Below, one piece after another: positions 21,581 through 50,896 of a DNA stretch of 64,000 bases. The position numbers and the translations under genes were made by a program. Source of the DNA: Escherichia coli (GTDB lineage Bacteria; Pseudomonadota; Gammaproteobacteria; Enterobacterales; Enterobacteriaceae); assembly GCF_003018115.1 (NCBI RefSeq), contig NZ_CP027457.1, one strand, 5' to 3'. The notes under the pieces were generated by a model that did not search any database, was not told the origin of the DNA, and saw only the letters and a program-made list of their open reading frames with translations. Every line of letters begins with the position of its first letter. The stretch's first letter is position 1.

Positions 21581-21615
21581 GTAGGCCGGATAAAGCGTTA
21601 ACGCCGCATCCGGCA
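21581..21615. repeat. REP element (GTAGGCCGGATAAAGCGTTAACGCCGCATCCGGCA) with a second REP-like copy around 21512-21547
   Basis: Matches enterobacterial REP palindrome consensus. Confidence 0.6.
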
Positions 21616-21688: not shown

Positions 21689-24445
21689 TTACCCGAGAAT
21701 TTTGCTGGCTTCGCGCGCGACATTATCCATCTCGTCCAACAGTTCCAGCAGCTCCGGCTCCAAATCTTCTTCTTTAGTACCGCTACGTAGCTGTTGTTCG
21801 ATCAGTTGGCAGAGATTCTTCATACGCGGCACACCGCTATAGCCGCAACTGCCATGCAGTTTATGAATCAAATCAACCAGGCCTTCCGGGTTTTCTCCAA
21901 CCAGCTGTTCCTCAACTTTGTTGCGAACTTCAGGCAGGAAATCGAGTAACATTTGCAGCATATCGCGCGCTAAATCGGTTTTTCCTGCTGCCTGGCGTAG
22001 TGCCAGTTGCCAGTCGAGGGTCGCATTCGGGTTCACCACAATTTCGTTGACTTCGGGCGTCACGACGCGAGAGGAAATACCGCTGCCAGGCTTGTAGCGC
22101 AACAGCAAATTATGCAATCGCTCTTCTTCAATCGGTTTCGCCAGATAATCGCTCATCCCTGCGCCAAGCAGCTTCTCTTTTTGCCCGGCCATTGCATGCG
22201 CCGTTACCGCGATAACCGGCGTTTGTTGCTGATGGGGGAGCTGGTGGATGAGCTCGCAGGCCCGAATGCCATCCATGTCAGGCATTTGAATATCCATTAA
22301 GATCAAATCGAACGGCATCTGTTTCGCCCGTTCAACCGCCTGATGCCCGCTATCGCAAAGTTCCACATGTTGCACCATATCTTCCAGCAATGCGCCGATA
22401 AGTTTCAGGTTAGCGGGGTTGTCATCAACTGCCATGACTGTCATTGCCAGCTTGCTTTCATCGGTTACAGGCAAAAGCGTGTTTTGTTTGTGATGACAAA
22501 ATTCCGTCAGGGCAGGCAACAGGCGCGTAGGTGTTAATGGTTTCAGCAGACACGCGCCGATACCATCTTGCTTGAGTTTTTCTGCATTGACTTGTGCATG
22601 GCAAGGAAGTGCCAGCATCAGGAAATCGGTCATCGATACCGCTTTCGCTAATCGCTCATGTTGCATTGTTAGCGGCTCGCGGAAGGTCACCGCGATGCCT
22701 AACAACATCATGTCGTAATGCGCGGGAGGCAGCGCGGAGAACGTTGGGCTATAAACCACTTCCAGCGGCGTTTCACTTAAAATATCCAGCGTGCATTGCG
22801 CTGCTGCGGAGTTTGGTTCGACATAGGCCAGGCGCTTACCGGCGAGGCACTGGGTGGATGGCCCTTCGATAATAATGTTCGGGTTCAGATCGAGATTAAT
22901 GTGGAACCAGAAAGTTGAACCGCGATTCGGCTGGCTATGGAACGAAATATCGCCGCCCATTTCATTAACCAGTTTTTGTGTAATCACCAGCCCCAGACCG
23001 GTGCCACCATGACGGCGGGAAATACTGGCATCAGCCTGTCGGAAGGCCTGGAATAAGCGCGATTGATCGCGTTCAGGAATACCAATGCCGGTATCCCGAA
23101 TCTGCACTTCAATCTGCACTTTGGTATTACTCAGCGCACGTTTTTCTACCAGAATATCAATGTTGCCATTCTCGGTGAATTTAATTGCATTCCCCACCAG
23201 GTTAGTGATGATTTGCTGTAATCGCAGTGGGTCGCCGATCACGTTATCAGGCACGTCGCTTTTAATATTGAGCGTCAGTTCCAACCCTTTATCGTGAGAA
23301 GAATGTGCCAGCAGAGTAACGACTTCATCCAGCGTGCTGCGTAGTGGGAATGGAATACTTTCCAGAATCAGCTTACCTGCTTCCAGTTTCGAGAAGTCGA
23401 GAACATCATTAATAATTGCCAGCAAATTATTTGCCGAACGTTCAATCGTATTCAGGTGATCGCGCTGCGTTGGTGTTAATTCTGTTTTCAGCGTCAGGCG
23501 GGTAAAGCCAATAACACCATTCAGTGGTGTACGCAGCTCGTGTGACATATTTGCCAGAAACTCGGATTTAATACGCGCCGCTTCCTGGGCGCGCTTTTTC
23601 GCCAGATCTAACTCAACGTTCTGAATTTCCATCTGCTCCAGCGTTTCACGCAGATCGGACGTCGCCTGGTCGATATTGTGCTGCATCTCTTCGTGATAAG
23701 CAGCCAGCGACATTGCCATCGAGTTGATACCGTTTTTCAGCATATCCAGCTCGCCGAGCATAAATCCTTCCACCCGGCTGTCGAGTTGCCCGCGACGGAT
23801 GCGGTCGACGGTATTCACCATGTTGCGAATCGGACCGGTTACATCGCGCATTAAGCGCCAGCCAAAAATAAGCGCAATACCGATACAAAACAGCATCATC
23901 ACGCTGGAAATAAAGATCTCTTTATATTGCTGCAAGCGAACCGATTTAAGATCCAGCTCAAGCGCAATATATCCCAACATATTTTGACTATTTTTGGCAT
24001 CGCTACTGGGCGATTCGTCGGGGGAGTAACTCTCAGAAATAATCGGCGTGCGGAGGATCATAATATCGCCGTCACGAGTGACAGTGAGCTGGCGAGGAAA
24101 CGGCACGTTGCTGCCGAGCTGCATTGATGAGGGATCAAGATGAAAATTGGAGGTGACAAAGAGTCGGTTATTTTCATCATAAACCGAAATCGCGCGAACA
24201 ATATCGGAATGGCGACGATGCAGTACGCTTATTAACTGACCGATAGATTCGCGATTTTGCAGGCTCATGCCATATTCAGTAGAAACTGCAAGCGGCTCAA
24301 TAATGCTGGCACCGGCATCTTCCAGTTGACGCTGCAAGTCGTTATAGCGATGCACGACGAAAAAGATACTCAGCAATAAACCAATAAGGACGGTCGGTGC
24401 CAGGATCAGAATCATCATGCGTGCGCGCAGGCTGTAGTTGGTCAT
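21689..24445 (-). CDS. barA: hybrid sensor histidine kinase BarA
   Basis: 918-aa ORF with HAMP, HisKA (SHELRTP), HATPase, receiver and HPt regions. Confidence 0.92.
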
Positions 24446-24501
24446 GGAGTTCCGTTATGGGACAATTAAGGTCACACTGTTAAATTGAGAAAGTCTCGCC
24501 A

Positions 24502-25803
24502 ATGGCGCAATTCTACTCTGCAAAACGACGCACGACGACGCGTCAGATCATAACCGTTTCAGTCAACGACCTCGACTCTTTTGGTCAGGGCGTGGCGCGA
24601 CATAACGGCAAAACGCTATTTATCCCCGGATTATTACCGCAGGAAAACGCGGAAGTTACTGTTACTGAAGATAAAAAACAGTATGCCCGCGCTAAAGTCG
24701 TACGCCGGTTAAGCGATAGCCCGGAACGCGAAACGCCACGCTGTCCTCATTTTGGCGTATGCGGCGGCTGTCAGCAACAACACGCCAGCGTGGATTTACA
24801 GCAGCGAAGCAAAAGTGCGGCACTCGCCCGATTAATGAAACACGAAGTCTCTGAAGTGATCGCCGATGTTCCCTGGGGCTATCGCCGTCGCGCGCGTTTA
24901 AGTCTGAATTACTTACCGAAAACACAGCAACTTCAGATGGGGTTTCGCAAAGCGGGCTCCAGTGACATTGTCGACGTTAAACAATGCCCCATTTTAGCGC
25001 CCCAACTTGAAGCATTGCTGCCCAAAGTCAGGGCATGCCTGGGCAGCTTACAAGCTATGCGCCATCTTGGTCATGTTGAACTGGTACAGGCAACCAGCGG
25101 CACGCTGATGATTTTGCGCCATACCGCACCGCTAAGTTCGGCAGATCGCGAAAAACTGGAACGCTTTTCGCATTCTGAAGGCCTGGATCTGTATCTCGCC
25201 CCCGATAGTGAGATACTCGAAACCGTCTCTGGTGAGATGCCCTGGTATGACTCAAACGGGTTGCGCTTAACTTTTAGCCCCCGCGATTTTATTCAGGTTA
25301 ATGCGGGTGTGAACCAAAAAATGGTAGCGCGTGCGTTGGAATGGCTGGATGTGGAACCTGAAGATCGCGTACTGGATCTGTTCTGCGGTATGGGCAACTT
25401 TACACTGCCATTGGCGACACAAGCAGCCAGTGTGGTGGGTGTAGAAGGTGTTCCGGCGCTGGTGGAAAAAGGCCAGCAGAATGCGCGTCTTAATGGCTTA
25501 CAGAATGTGACGTTTTATCATGAAAATCTTGAAGAAGATGTCACAAAGCAGCCGTGGGCGAAAAACGGCTTCGATAAAGTGTTGCTGGACCCGGCGCGAG
25601 CAGGTGCCGCAGGTGTTATGCAGCAAATTATAAAACTGGAACCTATTCGTATAGTTTATGTATCCTGTAACCCTGCAACGCTGGCTCGGGATAGCGAAGC
25701 GTTATTAAAAGCAGGATATACCATTGCGCGACTGGCGATGCTGGATATGTTCCCACACACGGGACATCTGGAATCGATGGTACTTTTCTCGCGCGTTAAA
25801 TAG
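24502..25803 (+). CDS. rlmD: 23S rRNA (uracil1939-C5)-methyltransferase
   Basis: 433-aa ORF with TRAM domain and Fe-S cysteines ([11 protein letters not shown]). Confidence 0.9.
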
Positions 25804-25850
25804 TTGCGATTTGCCGATTTCGGCAGGTCTGGTCCCTAAAGGAGAGGACG

Positions 25851-28085
25851 ATGGTTGCGGTAAGAAGTGCACATATCAATAAGGCTGGTGAATTTGATCC
25901 GGAAAAATGGATCGCAAGTCTGGGTATTACCAGCCAGAAGTCGTGTGAGTGCTTAGCCGAAACCTGGGCGTATTGTCTGCAACAGACGCAGGGGCATCCG
26001 GATGCCAGTCTGTTATTGTGGCGTGGTGTTGAGATGGTGGAGATCCTCTCGACATTAAGTATGGACATTGACACGCTGCGGGCGGCGCTGCTTTTCCCTC
26101 TGGCGGATGCCAACGTAGTCAGCGAAGATGTGCTGCGTGAGAGCGTCGGTAAGTCGGTCGTTAACCTTATTCACGGCGTGCGTGATATGGCGGCGATCCG
26201 CCAGCTGAAAGCGACGCACACTGATTCTGTTTCCTCCGAACAGGTCGATAACGTTCGCCGGATGTTATTGGCGATGGTCGATGATTTTCGCTGCGTGGTC
26301 ATCAAACTGGCGGAGCGTATTGCTCATCTGCGTGAAGTAAAAGATGCGCCGGAAGATGAACGCGTACTGGCGGCAAAAGAGTGCACCAATATCTACGCGC
26401 CGTTGGCAAACCGTCTTGGGATTGGGCAACTGAAATGGGAGCTGGAAGATTACTGCTTCCGTTATCTCCACCCGACCGAATACAAACGCATCGCAAAACT
26501 GTTGCATGAACGCCGTCTCGACCGCGAACACTATATCGAAGAGTTTGTCGGCCATCTGCGCGCTGAGATGAAAGCTGAAGGCGTTAAAGCTGAAGTGTAT
26601 GGTCGTCCGAAACACATCTACAGCATCTGGCGCAAAATGCAGAAAAAGAACCTCGCCTTCGATGAGCTGTTTGATGTGCGTGCGGTACGTATTGTCGCCG
26701 AGCGTTTACAGGATTGTTATGCCGCACTGGGGATAGTGCACACTCACTATCGCCACCTGCCGGATGAGTTTGACGATTACGTCGCTAACCCGAAACCAAA
26801 CGGTTATCAGTCTATTCATACCGTGGTTCTGGGGCCGGGTGGAAAAACCGTTGAGATCCAAATCCGCACCAAACAGATGCATGAAGATGCAGAGTTGGGT
26901 GTTGCTGCGCACTGGAAATATAAAGAGGGCGCGGCTGCTGGCGGCGCACGTTCGGGACATGAAGACCGGATTGCCTGGCTGCGTAAACTGATTGCGTGGC
27001 AGGAAGAGATGGCTGATTCCGGCGAAATGCTCGACGAAGTACGTAGTCAGGTCTTTGACGACCGAGTGTACGTCTTTACGCCGAAAGGTGATGTCGTTGA
27101 TTTGCCTGCGGGATCAACGCCGCTGGACTTCGCTTACCACATCCACAGTGATGTCGGACACCGCTGCATCGGGGCAAAAATTGGCGGGCGCATTGTGCCG
27201 TTCACCTACCAGCTGCAGATGGGCGACCAGATTGAAATTATCACCCAGAAACAGCCGAACCCCAGCCGTGACTGGTTAAACCCAAACCTCGGTTACGTCA
27301 CAACCAGCCGTGGGCGCTCGAAAATTCACGCCTGGTTCCGTAAACAGGACCGTGACAAAAACATTCTGGCTGGGCGGCAAATCCTTGACGACGAGCTGGA
27401 ACATCTGGGGATCAGCCTGAAAGAAGCAGAAAAACATCTGCTGCCGCGTTACAACTTCAATGATGTCGACGAGTTGTTGGCGGCGATTGGTGGCGGGGAT
27501 ATCCGTCTCAATCAGATGGTGAACTTCCTGCAATCGCAATTTAATAAGCCGAGTGCCGAAGAGCAGGACGCCGCCGCGCTGAAACAGCTTCAGCAAAAAA
27601 GCTACACACCGCAAAACCGCAGTAAAGATAACGGTCGTGTGGTGGTTGAAGGTGTCGGTAACCTGATGCACCACATCGCGCGCTGCTGCCAGCCGATTCC
27701 TGGAGATGAGATTGTCGGCTTCATTACCCAGGGACGCGGTATTTCAGTACACCGCGCCGATTGCGAACAACTGGCGGAACTGCGCTCCCATGCGCCAGAA
27801 CGCATTGTTGACGCGGTATGGGGTGAGAGCTACTCCGCCGGATATTCGCTGGTGGTCCGCGTGGTGGCTAATGATCGTAGTGGGTTGTTACGTGATATCA
27901 CGACCATTCTCGCCAACGAGAAGGTGAACGTACTTGGCGTTGCCAGCCGTAGCGACACCAAACAGCAACTGGCGACCATCGACATGACCATTGAGATTTA
28001 CAACCTGCAGGTGCTGGGTCGCGTGCTGGGTAAACTCAACCAAGTGCCGGATGTTATCGACGCGCGTCGGTTGCACGGGAGTTAG
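25851..28085 (+). CDS. relA: GTP pyrophosphokinase ((p)ppGpp synthetase I)
   Basis: 744-aa ORF MVAVRSAHINKAGEFDPEKWIASL... Confidence 0.93.
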   Translation: MVAVRSAHINKAGEFDPEKWIASLGITSQKSCECLAETWAYCLQQTQGHPDASLLLWRGVEMVEILSTLSMDIDTLRAALLFPLADANVVSEDVLRESVGKSVVNLIHGVRDMAAIRQLKATHTDSVSSEQVDNVRRMLLAMVDDFRCVVIKLAERIAHLREVKDAPEDERVLAAKECTNIYAPLANRLGIGQLKWELEDYCFRYLHPTEYKRIAKLLHERRLDREHYIEEFVGHLRAEMKAEGVKAEVYGRPKHIYSIWRKMQKKNLAFDELFDVRAVRIVAERLQDCYAALGIVHTHYRHLPDEFDDYVANPKPNGYQSIHTVVLGPGGKTVEIQIRTKQMHEDAELGVAAHWKYKEGAAAGGARSGHEDRIAWLRKLIAWQEEMADSGEMLDEVRSQVFDDRVYVFTPKGDVVDLPAGSTPLDFAYHIHSDVGHRCIGAKIGGRIVPFTYQLQMGDQIEIITQKQPNPSRDWLNPNLGYVTTSRGRSKIHAWFRKQDRDKNILAGRQILDDELEHLGISLKEAEKHLLPRYNFNDVDELLAAIGGGDIRLNQMVNFLQSQFNKPSAEEQDAAALKQLQQKSYTPQNRSKDNGRVVVEGVGNLMHHIARCCQPIPGDEIVGFITQGRGISVHRADCEQLAELRSHAPERIVDAVWGESYSAGYSLVVRVVANDRSGLLRDITTILANEKVNVLGVASRSDTKQQLATIDMTIEIYNLQVLGRVLGKLNQVPDVIDARRLHGS

Positions 28086-28094
28086 TCTTACATA

Positions 28095-28135
28095 GCTGGA
28101 TATGGCGTCAGCCGTATCCAGCGATATCTTTTACT
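28095..28135 (+). terminator. intrinsic terminator after relA (12-bp stem GCTGGATATGGC / GCCGTATCCAGC, loop GTCA, tail GATATCTTTT)
   Basis: Read directly; one G-U pair. Confidence 0.65.
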
Positions 28136-28180
28136 CGAAGGTATTACACCTGACAGACCCGCAATTTTCAGGACAATTCA

Positions 28181-28972
28181 ATGAATCAAATCGACCGTTT
28201 GCTCACTATTATGCAGCGCCTGCGCGATCCGGAAAACGGCTGCCCGTGGGATAAAGAGCAGACATTTGCCACCATTGCGCCTTACACCCTTGAAGAAACC
28301 TACGAAGTGCTGGACGCCATCGCCCGTGAAGATTTTGACGATCTTCGCGGTGAACTGGGCGATCTGCTATTCCAGGTGGTGTTTTACGCGCAAATGGCTC
28401 AGGAAGAAGGGCGCTTTGACTTTAATGATATTTGCGCTGCTATTAGCGATAAATTAGAGCGTCGCCATCCGCATGTTTTTGCTGATAGTTCTGCCGAAAA
28501 CAGTAGTGAAGTGCTTGCCCGTTGGGAGCAAATCAAAACCGAAGAGCGCGCGCAGAAAGCGCAGCATTCGGCGCTGGACGATATTCCTCGTAGTTTACCG
28601 GCTTTAATGCGGGCGCAAAAAATCCAGAAACGTTGCGCCAACGTTGGCTTCGACTGGACGACGCTTGGCCCGGTGGTTGATAAAGTCTACGAAGAGATCG
28701 ACGAGGTGATGTACGAGGCGCGGCAGGCTGTTGTCGACCAGGCTAAACTGGAGGAGGAAATGGGTGACCTGCTGTTTGCCACGGTCAATCTGGCTCGTCA
28801 TTTAGGGACAAAAGCGGAAATCGCATTGCAAAAAGCGAACGAAAAATTCGAGCGTCGTTTTCGCGAAGTGGAGCGTATTGTTGCCGCGCGTGGACTGGAA
28901 ATGACAGGTGTTGACCTCGAAACAATGGAAGAAGTCTGGCAACAGGTAAAACGGCAGGAAATTGATCTCTAA
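28181..28972 (+). CDS. mazG: nucleoside triphosphate pyrophosphohydrolase MazG
   Basis: 263-aa ORF MNQIDRLLTIMQRLRDPENGCPWDKEQTF... Confidence 0.92.
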   Translation: MNQIDRLLTIMQRLRDPENGCPWDKEQTFATIAPYTLEETYEVLDAIAREDFDDLRGELGDLLFQVVFYAQMAQEEGRFDFNDICAAISDKLERRHPHVFADSSAENSSEVLARWEQIKTEERAQKAQHSALDDIPRSLPALMRAQKIQKRCANVGFDWTTLGPVVDKVYEEIDEVMYEARQAVVDQAKLEEEMGDLLFATVNLARHLGTKAEIALQKANEKFERRFREVERIVAARGLEMTGVDLETMEEVWQQVKRQEIDL

Positions 28973-29184
28973 GGGAATTACGCGGTCAAGCGCCATTTGT
29001 GTCATTTTTTAAATGACAAGCGCTTGATTTGCGTCAAAAACATTTACCCCAAAGGGGCTATTTTCTCACTCCTGATTTCAATAGTGCGCTGGCGAAGAGG
29101 AGGGATAATGAAAGTTTGTGGCACAGGTCATGTTCGGGTATACTGCTTTCCCGTCCTGGTTATTCCATCGTCTTTTCAACCTAA

Positions 29185-30837
<1,653 letters not shown>

Positions 30838-30855
30838 GTAAAAAAGTTAGAACGG

Positions 30856-30887
30856 CAACGCGTACCCTGGGTACGCGTTGTTTGTCT
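30856..30887 (+). terminator. hairpin CAACGCGTACCC-TGG-GTACGCGTTG + TTTGTCT between pyrG and eno (partial terminator/attenuator)
   Basis: Read directly. Confidence 0.6.
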
Positions 30888-30909
30888 GGAGTTTCAGTTT
30901 AACTAGTGA

Positions 30910-32223
<1,314 letters not shown>

Positions 32224-50857: not shown

Positions 50858-50896
50858 TTGTAGGCCTGATAAGACACGTGAGCGTCGCATCAGGCA
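50858..50896. repeat. REP element between cysI and cysH
   Basis: TTGTAGGCCTGATAAGACACGTGAGCGTCGCATCAGGCA read directly. Confidence 0.6.

Follow-up and report, generated by a model that had tools for sequence, protein, structure and literature searches.

In Escherichia coli K-12 the toxin-antitoxin genes mazE and mazF lie between relA and mazG. An earlier note on the stretch of E. coli DNA analysed here (64 kb in length, hereafter the window) had claimed that both genes are missing from this position and that the lineage had either never acquired them or lost them cleanly. This raises the question of what occupies the relA-mazG site in the window, and how the arrangement came about. Open reading frames and profile matches agree with the gene borders given before, i.e., relA ends at position 28085, mazG starts at 28181, and 95 bp lie in between. 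The relA gene (25851-28085, plus strand) codes for a GTP diphosphokinase of 744 amino acids which matches the NCBIfam equivalog NF008124 over its full length (1678 bits); its stop codon is TAG (28083-28085). The mazG gene (28181-28972, plus strand) codes for a nucleoside triphosphate pyrophosphohydrolase of 263 amino acids (TIGR00444, 419 bits; NF007113, 370 bits). Both genes are annotated in E. coli strain F9792. Their neighbours in the window are rlmD upstream of relA and pyrG downstream of mazG. The mazEF-free spacer (28086-28180, plus strand) will be referred to as the empty allele.

The absence of mazEF was examined with K-12 proteins as tblastn queries against the whole 64-kb window. Neither MazE, an AbrB/SpoVT-type antitoxin (best E = 3.3), nor MazF, an endoribonuclease of the PemK fold (best E = 3.1), was found, and the 95-bp spacer likewise holds no mazE-mazF pair. 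The mazEF promoter/operator region, which is of the ATCTACAATGTAGAT type, was not detected downstream of relA either: when the 77-bp region of K-12 was aligned with positions 28086-28147, 2197 of 3000 shuffled sequences scored as well. The same alignment test was positive for Escherichia albertii and for the enterobacterial contig L108 described below (0 of 3000 shuffles in both cases). The statement of the earlier note that mazG is uncoupled from the mazEF promoter is thus borne out by the missing promoter/operator sequence. The gene order relA-mazE-mazF-mazG, which the earlier note had given for K-12, is correct for strain MG1655, where 77 bp separate relA from mazE and 70 bp separate mazF from mazG; a K-12-like strain shows the same order and the same spacers. 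Both spacer lengths have been tabulated previously, together with the co-transcription of mazG with mazEF (Ramisetty et al. 2016, PMC5120126).

Comparison of the window with the K-12 locus, also known as chpA, revealed that position and flanking genes (barA, rlmD, relA, mazG, pyrG, eno) are the same. Sequence identity between the two alleles extends up to and including the relA stop codon and returns in the 34 bp immediately upstream of mazG (28147-28180, 100% identity), which include the mazG ribosome-binding site and belong to the mazF-mazG spacer in K-12. This 34-bp stretch is the only part of the K-12 relA-mazG interval that blastn matched to the window. According to blastn-short, the segment specific to the empty allele and absent from the K-12 mazEF allele extends from 28086 to 28146. 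Its boundary is gapped and possibly lies at 28139 already, which corresponds to query position 104, where megablast homology with mazEF-positive genomes resumes; the shared end thus measures 34-42 bp. The middle part differs entirely. In the window it consists of 53-61 bp with a REP-like hairpin, whereas K-12 has approximately 690-700 bp comprising promoter P2/P3 and its operator (the 'alternating palindrome'), both toxin-antitoxin genes and some 28-36 bp of the sequence that follows mazF. Neither allele holds the middle segment of the other. Because the 53-61 bp of the window are absent from the K-12 allele, the polymorphism is a replacement by alternative segments and is not explained by a precise insertion or deletion.

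A recent, precise deletion of mazEF from a K-12-type allele in the lineage of the window would leave no remnant of mazE or mazF, and none is visible. However, a deletion cannot create sequence, and the segment 28086-28146 with its 28-bp palindrome does not exist in the K-12 allele. Further, the junction with K-12 was inspected for target-site or direct-repeat signatures as the earlier note had proposed, and neither duplicated ends nor direct repeats were found at the boundaries of the K-12 insert. Finally, the empty segment is common to 1,006 genomes and to lineages which are only 94-96% identical to the window. A recent deletion is therefore highly improbable, and the clean loss considered in the earlier note is excluded in this form.

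The frequency of the two alleles was determined in complete E. coli genomes. To this end a 195-bp query spanning the junction was used, which is too short to bridge a mazEF insert in the search, so that coverage in one piece indicates an empty junction. An empty junction was present in 1,006 of the 5,426 genomes (about 18.5%), and mazEF DNA was found by megablast in 4,419. Sensitive blastn gave the same count; it added only seven plasmid-borne mazEF copies of 60-80% identity, all of them in genomes already positive for mazEF. Since the 1,006 empty and the 4,419 mazEF-containing genomes make up all 5,425 genomes in which the locus was found, the relA-mazG site is effectively biallelic in E. coli. 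Elsewhere in the empty-site genomes of this set, neither megablast nor sensitive blastn detected mazEF-like DNA, which indirectly indicates that mazEF is absent from the whole genome in the strain group of the window. That some 640 bp were lost from the junction through an error of sequencing or assembly is next to impossible, given that the identical junction occurs in 1,006 independently finished genomes and holds sequence not present in the mazEF allele. H87 and H89, whose junction matches cover only the last 50 nt of relA, were considered as a third allele and rejected; they are ordinary mazEF-positive loci with a variant mazF-mazG spacer of 71 bp. Strains IHE3034, E2348/69 and NC101 possess mazEF in the complete-genome set.

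With such a frequency the empty junction is not a peculiarity of one lineage, and it is already on record. In many strains lacking mazEF, relA and mazG form an undisturbed bicistronic operon (Fraikin, Goormaghtigh & Van Melderen 2020, PMC7167474), and MazF is absent from strain CFT073 (Van Melderen & Saavedra De Bast 2009, PMC2654758). The arrangement in the window is the same as in these strains and shows no difference in kind. Strain UTI89 is named as lacking mazEF in PMC7167474 but is listed with MazF in a table of PMC2654758. The mazEF-free relA-mazG junction is thus an already described polymorphism, real but ordinary, to which the present work makes minor additions: the REP identity of the hairpin, the count of 1,006 in 5,426 genomes, and a mazEF-operator scar in E. 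albertii. By this count, about 18.5% of finished E. coli genomes lack mazEF, a pair commonly regarded as a core stress or 'programmed death' module, and the genomes with the empty allele include probiotic, uropathogenic and ETEC-like lineages. This supports the view of mazEF as accessory cargo of a hot spot, functionally unconnected with either relA or mazG. In annotation work, the junction can be treated as a stable two-allele site.

The closest relatives of the window were sought in the genome collection. Within 1.2 kb around the junction (27500-28700), E. coli strain F9792 matches the window at every position. Over 9.3 kb (21700-31000) no complete genome of the collection was identical. The best matches, with 99.6-99.7% identity, were F8111-1SC3, two O169:H41 strains, LR882990 and F9792, all of which have the empty junction. 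The nearest mazEF-positive genomes over the same 9.3 kb were O145:H28 strains (99.4%). We take the O169:H41 strains to be ETEC and assign O169:H41, O145:H28 and O157:H7 to phylogroup E. The strain of the window is accordingly O169:H41 ETEC-like and not of the B2 type represented by EcN and its kin.

Despite this difference in background the spacer itself hardly varies. At most three of its 95 positions differ among the window, EP91A, two B2-type strains (4/1-1 and AR_0081) and the genome L004, and nearly identical empty alleles are present in EcN and GF4-3. EcN and the B2-type strains thus share the 95-bp spacer of the window with three differences at most, but their relA stop codon is TAA in place of TAG. 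The empty allele also occurs in L003 and L004, two GTDB species representatives labelled E. coli which are 94.5% and 95.8% identical to the window over the region and may represent cryptic Escherichia clades. In L003 the hairpin is kept by compensatory changes (T-A to C-G, U-G to C-G and C-G to U-G), and the T-rich tail following the hairpin is kept in all empty alleles aligned. Among 80 relA-mazG loci of Enterobacterales species representatives, none encoded MazE or MazF between the two genes (tblastn, E ≤ 1e-3). Given the near-invariant spacer, its presence in divergent Escherichia lineages, the 80 relatives without mazEF and the lack of any operator trace, the empty allele appears to be old, conserved and free of scars. 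An open reading frame for 50 amino acids (28102-28254) starting within the hairpin was discarded as a candidate gene, because L003 has ACG in place of its start codon ATG and because it runs into mazG in a different frame.

To characterize the segment specific to the empty allele, its secondary structure was predicted and compared with known repeats. The palindrome at 28095-28122 (plus strand) was recovered by a scan for terminator-like structures, by folding and by alignment with REP sequences. It has a stem of 12 base pairs, seven of them G-C, and a loop of 4 nt, and folds alone at -21.9 kcal/mol. The 106-nt region around it folds with a z-score of -5.2, and none of 200 shuffled sequences folded as well. 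Aligned with the reverse complement of the Y-type REP consensus, the hairpin matches at 24 of 28 positions with two one-base gaps (0 of 2000 shuffles). The assumed Y-type and Z-type consensus sequences used for scoring are supported by the fact that they pick out canonical REPs elsewhere in the window. One of these, located just downstream of barA (21581-21614, minus strand), is of the Y type with two mismatches to the assumed consensus, and the other (50860-50895, minus strand) is of the Z type with three mismatches.

Orthologous spacers provide a second line of evidence. Canonical REP/BIME elements fill the space between relA and mazG in several Citrobacter species, in Salmonella enterica subsp. 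arizonae and in E. albertii, and the window hairpin can be aligned with the Y-type REP from E. albertii (0 of 2000 shuffles). Like REP/BIME elements within operons, the hairpin is an imperfect palindrome with ends of the type GC(C/T)GGAT...ATCC(A/G)GC, and it is extragenic between co-oriented genes. The hairpin of the window measures 28 nt, against about 35 nt in such elements, and is a single copy instead of a BIME pair. The flank before the stem reads CATAG in place of the GTAGG of canonical copies, so that the GTAG/CTAC tetranucleotide, the RAYT recognition motif, is degenerate. No second copy of the hairpin within three mismatches was found in the 64-kb window, and an Rfam scan of positions 27800-28400 with E values up to 10 returned no family. 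Judged by the assumed consensus and by the REPs in orthologous spacers, the hairpin appears to be a REP, and it is called degenerate because the copy is shortened, its flanking GTAG is degraded and no near-identical copy exists in the window.

The earlier note had interpreted this structure as a well-formed intrinsic terminator. The strong stem is present, and so is a T-rich tail, GATATCTTTT, at 28123-28132 (plus strand). The palindrome, in contrast, is that of a degenerate REP, and the tail is not of the expected form: in GAUAUCUUUU, six of eight bases from the third base on are U, and the UUUU run begins only 7 nt after the stem. A role as an efficient, full terminator is doubtful because this late start of the four-U run is atypical for efficient intrinsic terminators; the structure fits either role. 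REPs located inside operons generally act as attenuators and as stabilisers of 3' ends, not as full stops.

How mazG is transcribed in the empty allele depends on the function of this hairpin. Both genes are on the plus strand, 95 bp apart. If the hairpin acted as an intrinsic terminator of full efficiency, relA and mazG would be separate transcription units, and mazG would possess a promoter of its own that has escaped recognition. The strength of the stem (-21.9 kcal/mol), the T-rich tail, the score in the terminator-like scan and the conservation of the tail in all empty alleles are in line with this explanation. It is at odds with the promoter content of the spacer: for the sole σ70-like match (28150-28177), which is also the only one between hairpin and mazG, the predicted start point lies downstream of the mazG ATG. 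K-12, whose mazG reportedly shares a transcript with the genes before it (PMC5120126), has the same promoter-like sequence, and relA-mazG is described as bicistronic in the review PMC7167474. The attenuating and stabilising role known in general for REPs inside operons also argues against complete termination, which we therefore regard as unlikely.

The favoured alternative is a relA-mazG operon of two genes under the relA promoters, on which mazG would have to depend since no mazEF promoter is present. The REP hairpin and its T-rich tail would stabilise the 3' end of the relA mRNA and allow partial read-through into mazG, whose translation would be served by the Shine-Dalgarno sequence AGGA (28170-28173, plus strand), 7 nt before the ATG. 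In this arrangement mazG would do without the extra, autoregulated transcription provided by the P2/P3 promoters of mazEF in K-12. Statements on mazG regulation by the mazEF promoter that are based on K-12 are not transferable to strains with the empty allele.

The distribution of the two alleles was further compared with that of the flanking haplotypes. EcN (empty) and K-12 (mazEF positive), which we take to belong to phylogroups B2 and A, respectively, are identical at the variable sites over 27521-28046 and 28207-28994. Over the whole range 27521-28994, EcN (L089) and K-12 (L088) differ only in the cassette, in the relA stop codon (TAA in EcN, TAG in K-12) and at two sites of the spacer. 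Similarly, GF4-3 (empty) and O145 (mazEF positive) have a common haplotype in the left flank. With both alleles found on the same flanking haplotypes, they are most likely swapped between lineages by homologous recombination in relA and mazG.

Such a swap could also have taken place in the ancestry of the window strain. Its ancestors might have possessed mazEF, as O145:H28 and O157:H7 do, and might have lost it by importing an empty allele through homologous recombination. The 99.4% identity with O145:H28 over 9.3 kb would fit, as would the distribution of the differences, of which there are zero to three per 250 bp between window and O145 except in a patch at approximately 27851-28850 where they are concentrated; the EcN and K-12 pair demonstrates that both alleles can occur on identical flanks and that such swaps therefore happen. 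However, the 5' part of mazG is mosaic in every pair compared, including O145 and O157 with 20 differences in 704 bp, so that the patch does not reveal which lineage is the recombinant, and the data are accounted for just as well by an ancestral polymorphism that has been retained. An import of this kind is thus conceivable but somewhat less probable than its absence. For the site as a whole, it is probable that the window carries an old mazEF-free haplotype, in which a REP is followed by the mazG ribosome-binding site, that coexists with the mazEF allele at a ratio of about 1:4, the two being exchanged by recombination.

The age of mazEF at the site was addressed with E. albertii, whose relA-mazG spacer measures 261-262 bp in the type strain and ten further genomes. 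The first 30 bp of this spacer match the mazEF promoter/operator of K-12 at 27 positions (0 of 3000 shuffles), the middle consists of two REPs forming a Z-type and Y-type pair, and the end corresponds to the full mazF-mazG spacer (59 of 63 positions). The segment (L005:2740-3000 in NBRC 107761; also in L091-L100) is conserved in all 11 genomes and looks like the scar of a lost mazEF module whose place was taken by a BIME. Since E. albertii has this mazEF-operator scar, mazEF at the relA-mazG site is older than E. coli, and the history of the site in Escherichia comprises more than a single gain of mazEF by E. coli. With mazEF predating E. coli at this position, the empty E. coli allele itself could descend from an ancient loss of mazEF. 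Comparison of the segment following the REP in the empty allele with E. albertii did not reveal significant similarity (125 of 2000 shuffles scored as well). A short motif, GGAATTACA/GGTATTACA, which recurs in the empty allele, in the E. albertii spacer and at the 3' end of mazF, was considered as a trace of a deletion and dismissed, because its score is no better than chance, with 504 of 2000 and 125 of 2000 shuffles scoring as well.

The operator belongs to the mazEF cassette and not to the site, because two other mazEF loci carry an analogous or near-identical one. In the mazEF homologue of plasmid pT82A, mazE is preceded by the palindrome ATCAACAATGTTGAT, a counterpart of the operator ATCTACAATGTAGAT of K-12. 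In contig L108, MazF is 82% identical to that of K-12, and the operator, which immediately follows a duplicate of the 3' end of relA, is identical to that of K-12 at 37 of 38 positions. The pT82A locus (E. coli C439, L101:1240-1275) shares about 71% DNA identity with K-12 in mazEF and adjoins partition genes of the parG/parA type and a hok/gef gene.

Other small cassettes were found at the same site in related bacteria. The gene order in L108:1-3336, a Logan contig (SRR11408873) from an enterobacterium, is relA, parD, parE, an open reading frame for a membrane protein of 105 amino acids, a repeat, the operator, mazE and mazF. The repeat duplicates 43 bp of the 3' end of relA in direct orientation (1382-1424 and 2636-2678, identical at 41 of 43 positions); cassettes are stacked behind relA, accompanied by a long target duplication. 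In Superficieibacter sp. 1612_C1 (L018:2174-2786) parDE lies between relA and mazG (Pfam ParD_antitoxin, 2e-18; ParE_toxin, 1e-11). The sister species S. electus (L016:2048-3000) has a spacer of about 950 bp in which only fragments and an open reading frame for a membrane protein of 112 amino acids, similar to the 105-amino-acid protein of L108, were recognized. Cargo of the parDE type at this position has been reported for Salmonella spp. (PMC7167474), i.e., the same site takes up small cassettes, whereas in the window it is unoccupied.

A comparable situation is described for the ccdO157 site in the folA-apaH spacer, which is occupied by REPs when empty (PMC7167474). As with relA-mazG, a toxin-antitoxin cassette and a REP spacer are alternative occupants; locus and toxin-antitoxin family are different. 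One might suppose that REP spacers and toxin-antitoxin cassettes are interchangeable at the same sites through a common REP-associated mechanism, an idea we consider quite unlikely to be correct. It draws on the REP in the empty E. coli allele, on the REPs reported for the empty ccdO157 site, and on E. albertii, whose BIME lies precisely at the place of the lost mazEF, with the operator remnant on one side and the mazF-mazG spacer on the other. If it were true, and REPs or RAYTs mediated the gain and loss of such cassettes, this would provide a mechanism for their mobility, which the field calls unelucidated, the mechanism of cassette integration being described as unknown (PMC7167474). Moreover, the ratio of relA to mazG expression could be shifted by the REP hairpin in about one fifth of E. 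coli strains.

Two further loci deviate from the simple spacer. In assembly GCA_014857645.1 (L106, 671-6327) the order relA-mazE-mazF-mazG-pyrG-eno was found with a MazF 80% identical to that of K-12. This locus was not accepted as independent evidence for mazEF at the site, as relA, mazG, pyrG and eno are fragmented, and it stems either from an error-rich assembly or from a genome in decay. In a genome designated 'UNVERIFIED_ORG: Buttiauxella agrestis' (L042:1210-3000), relA and mazG are separated by an insert of 1.8 kb that codes for Hcp (T6SS_HCP, 2e-20), a DUF4225 protein (1e-46) and a membrane protein of 109 amino acids without Pfam match, and that may represent an islet of type VI effector and immunity genes in this hot spot.
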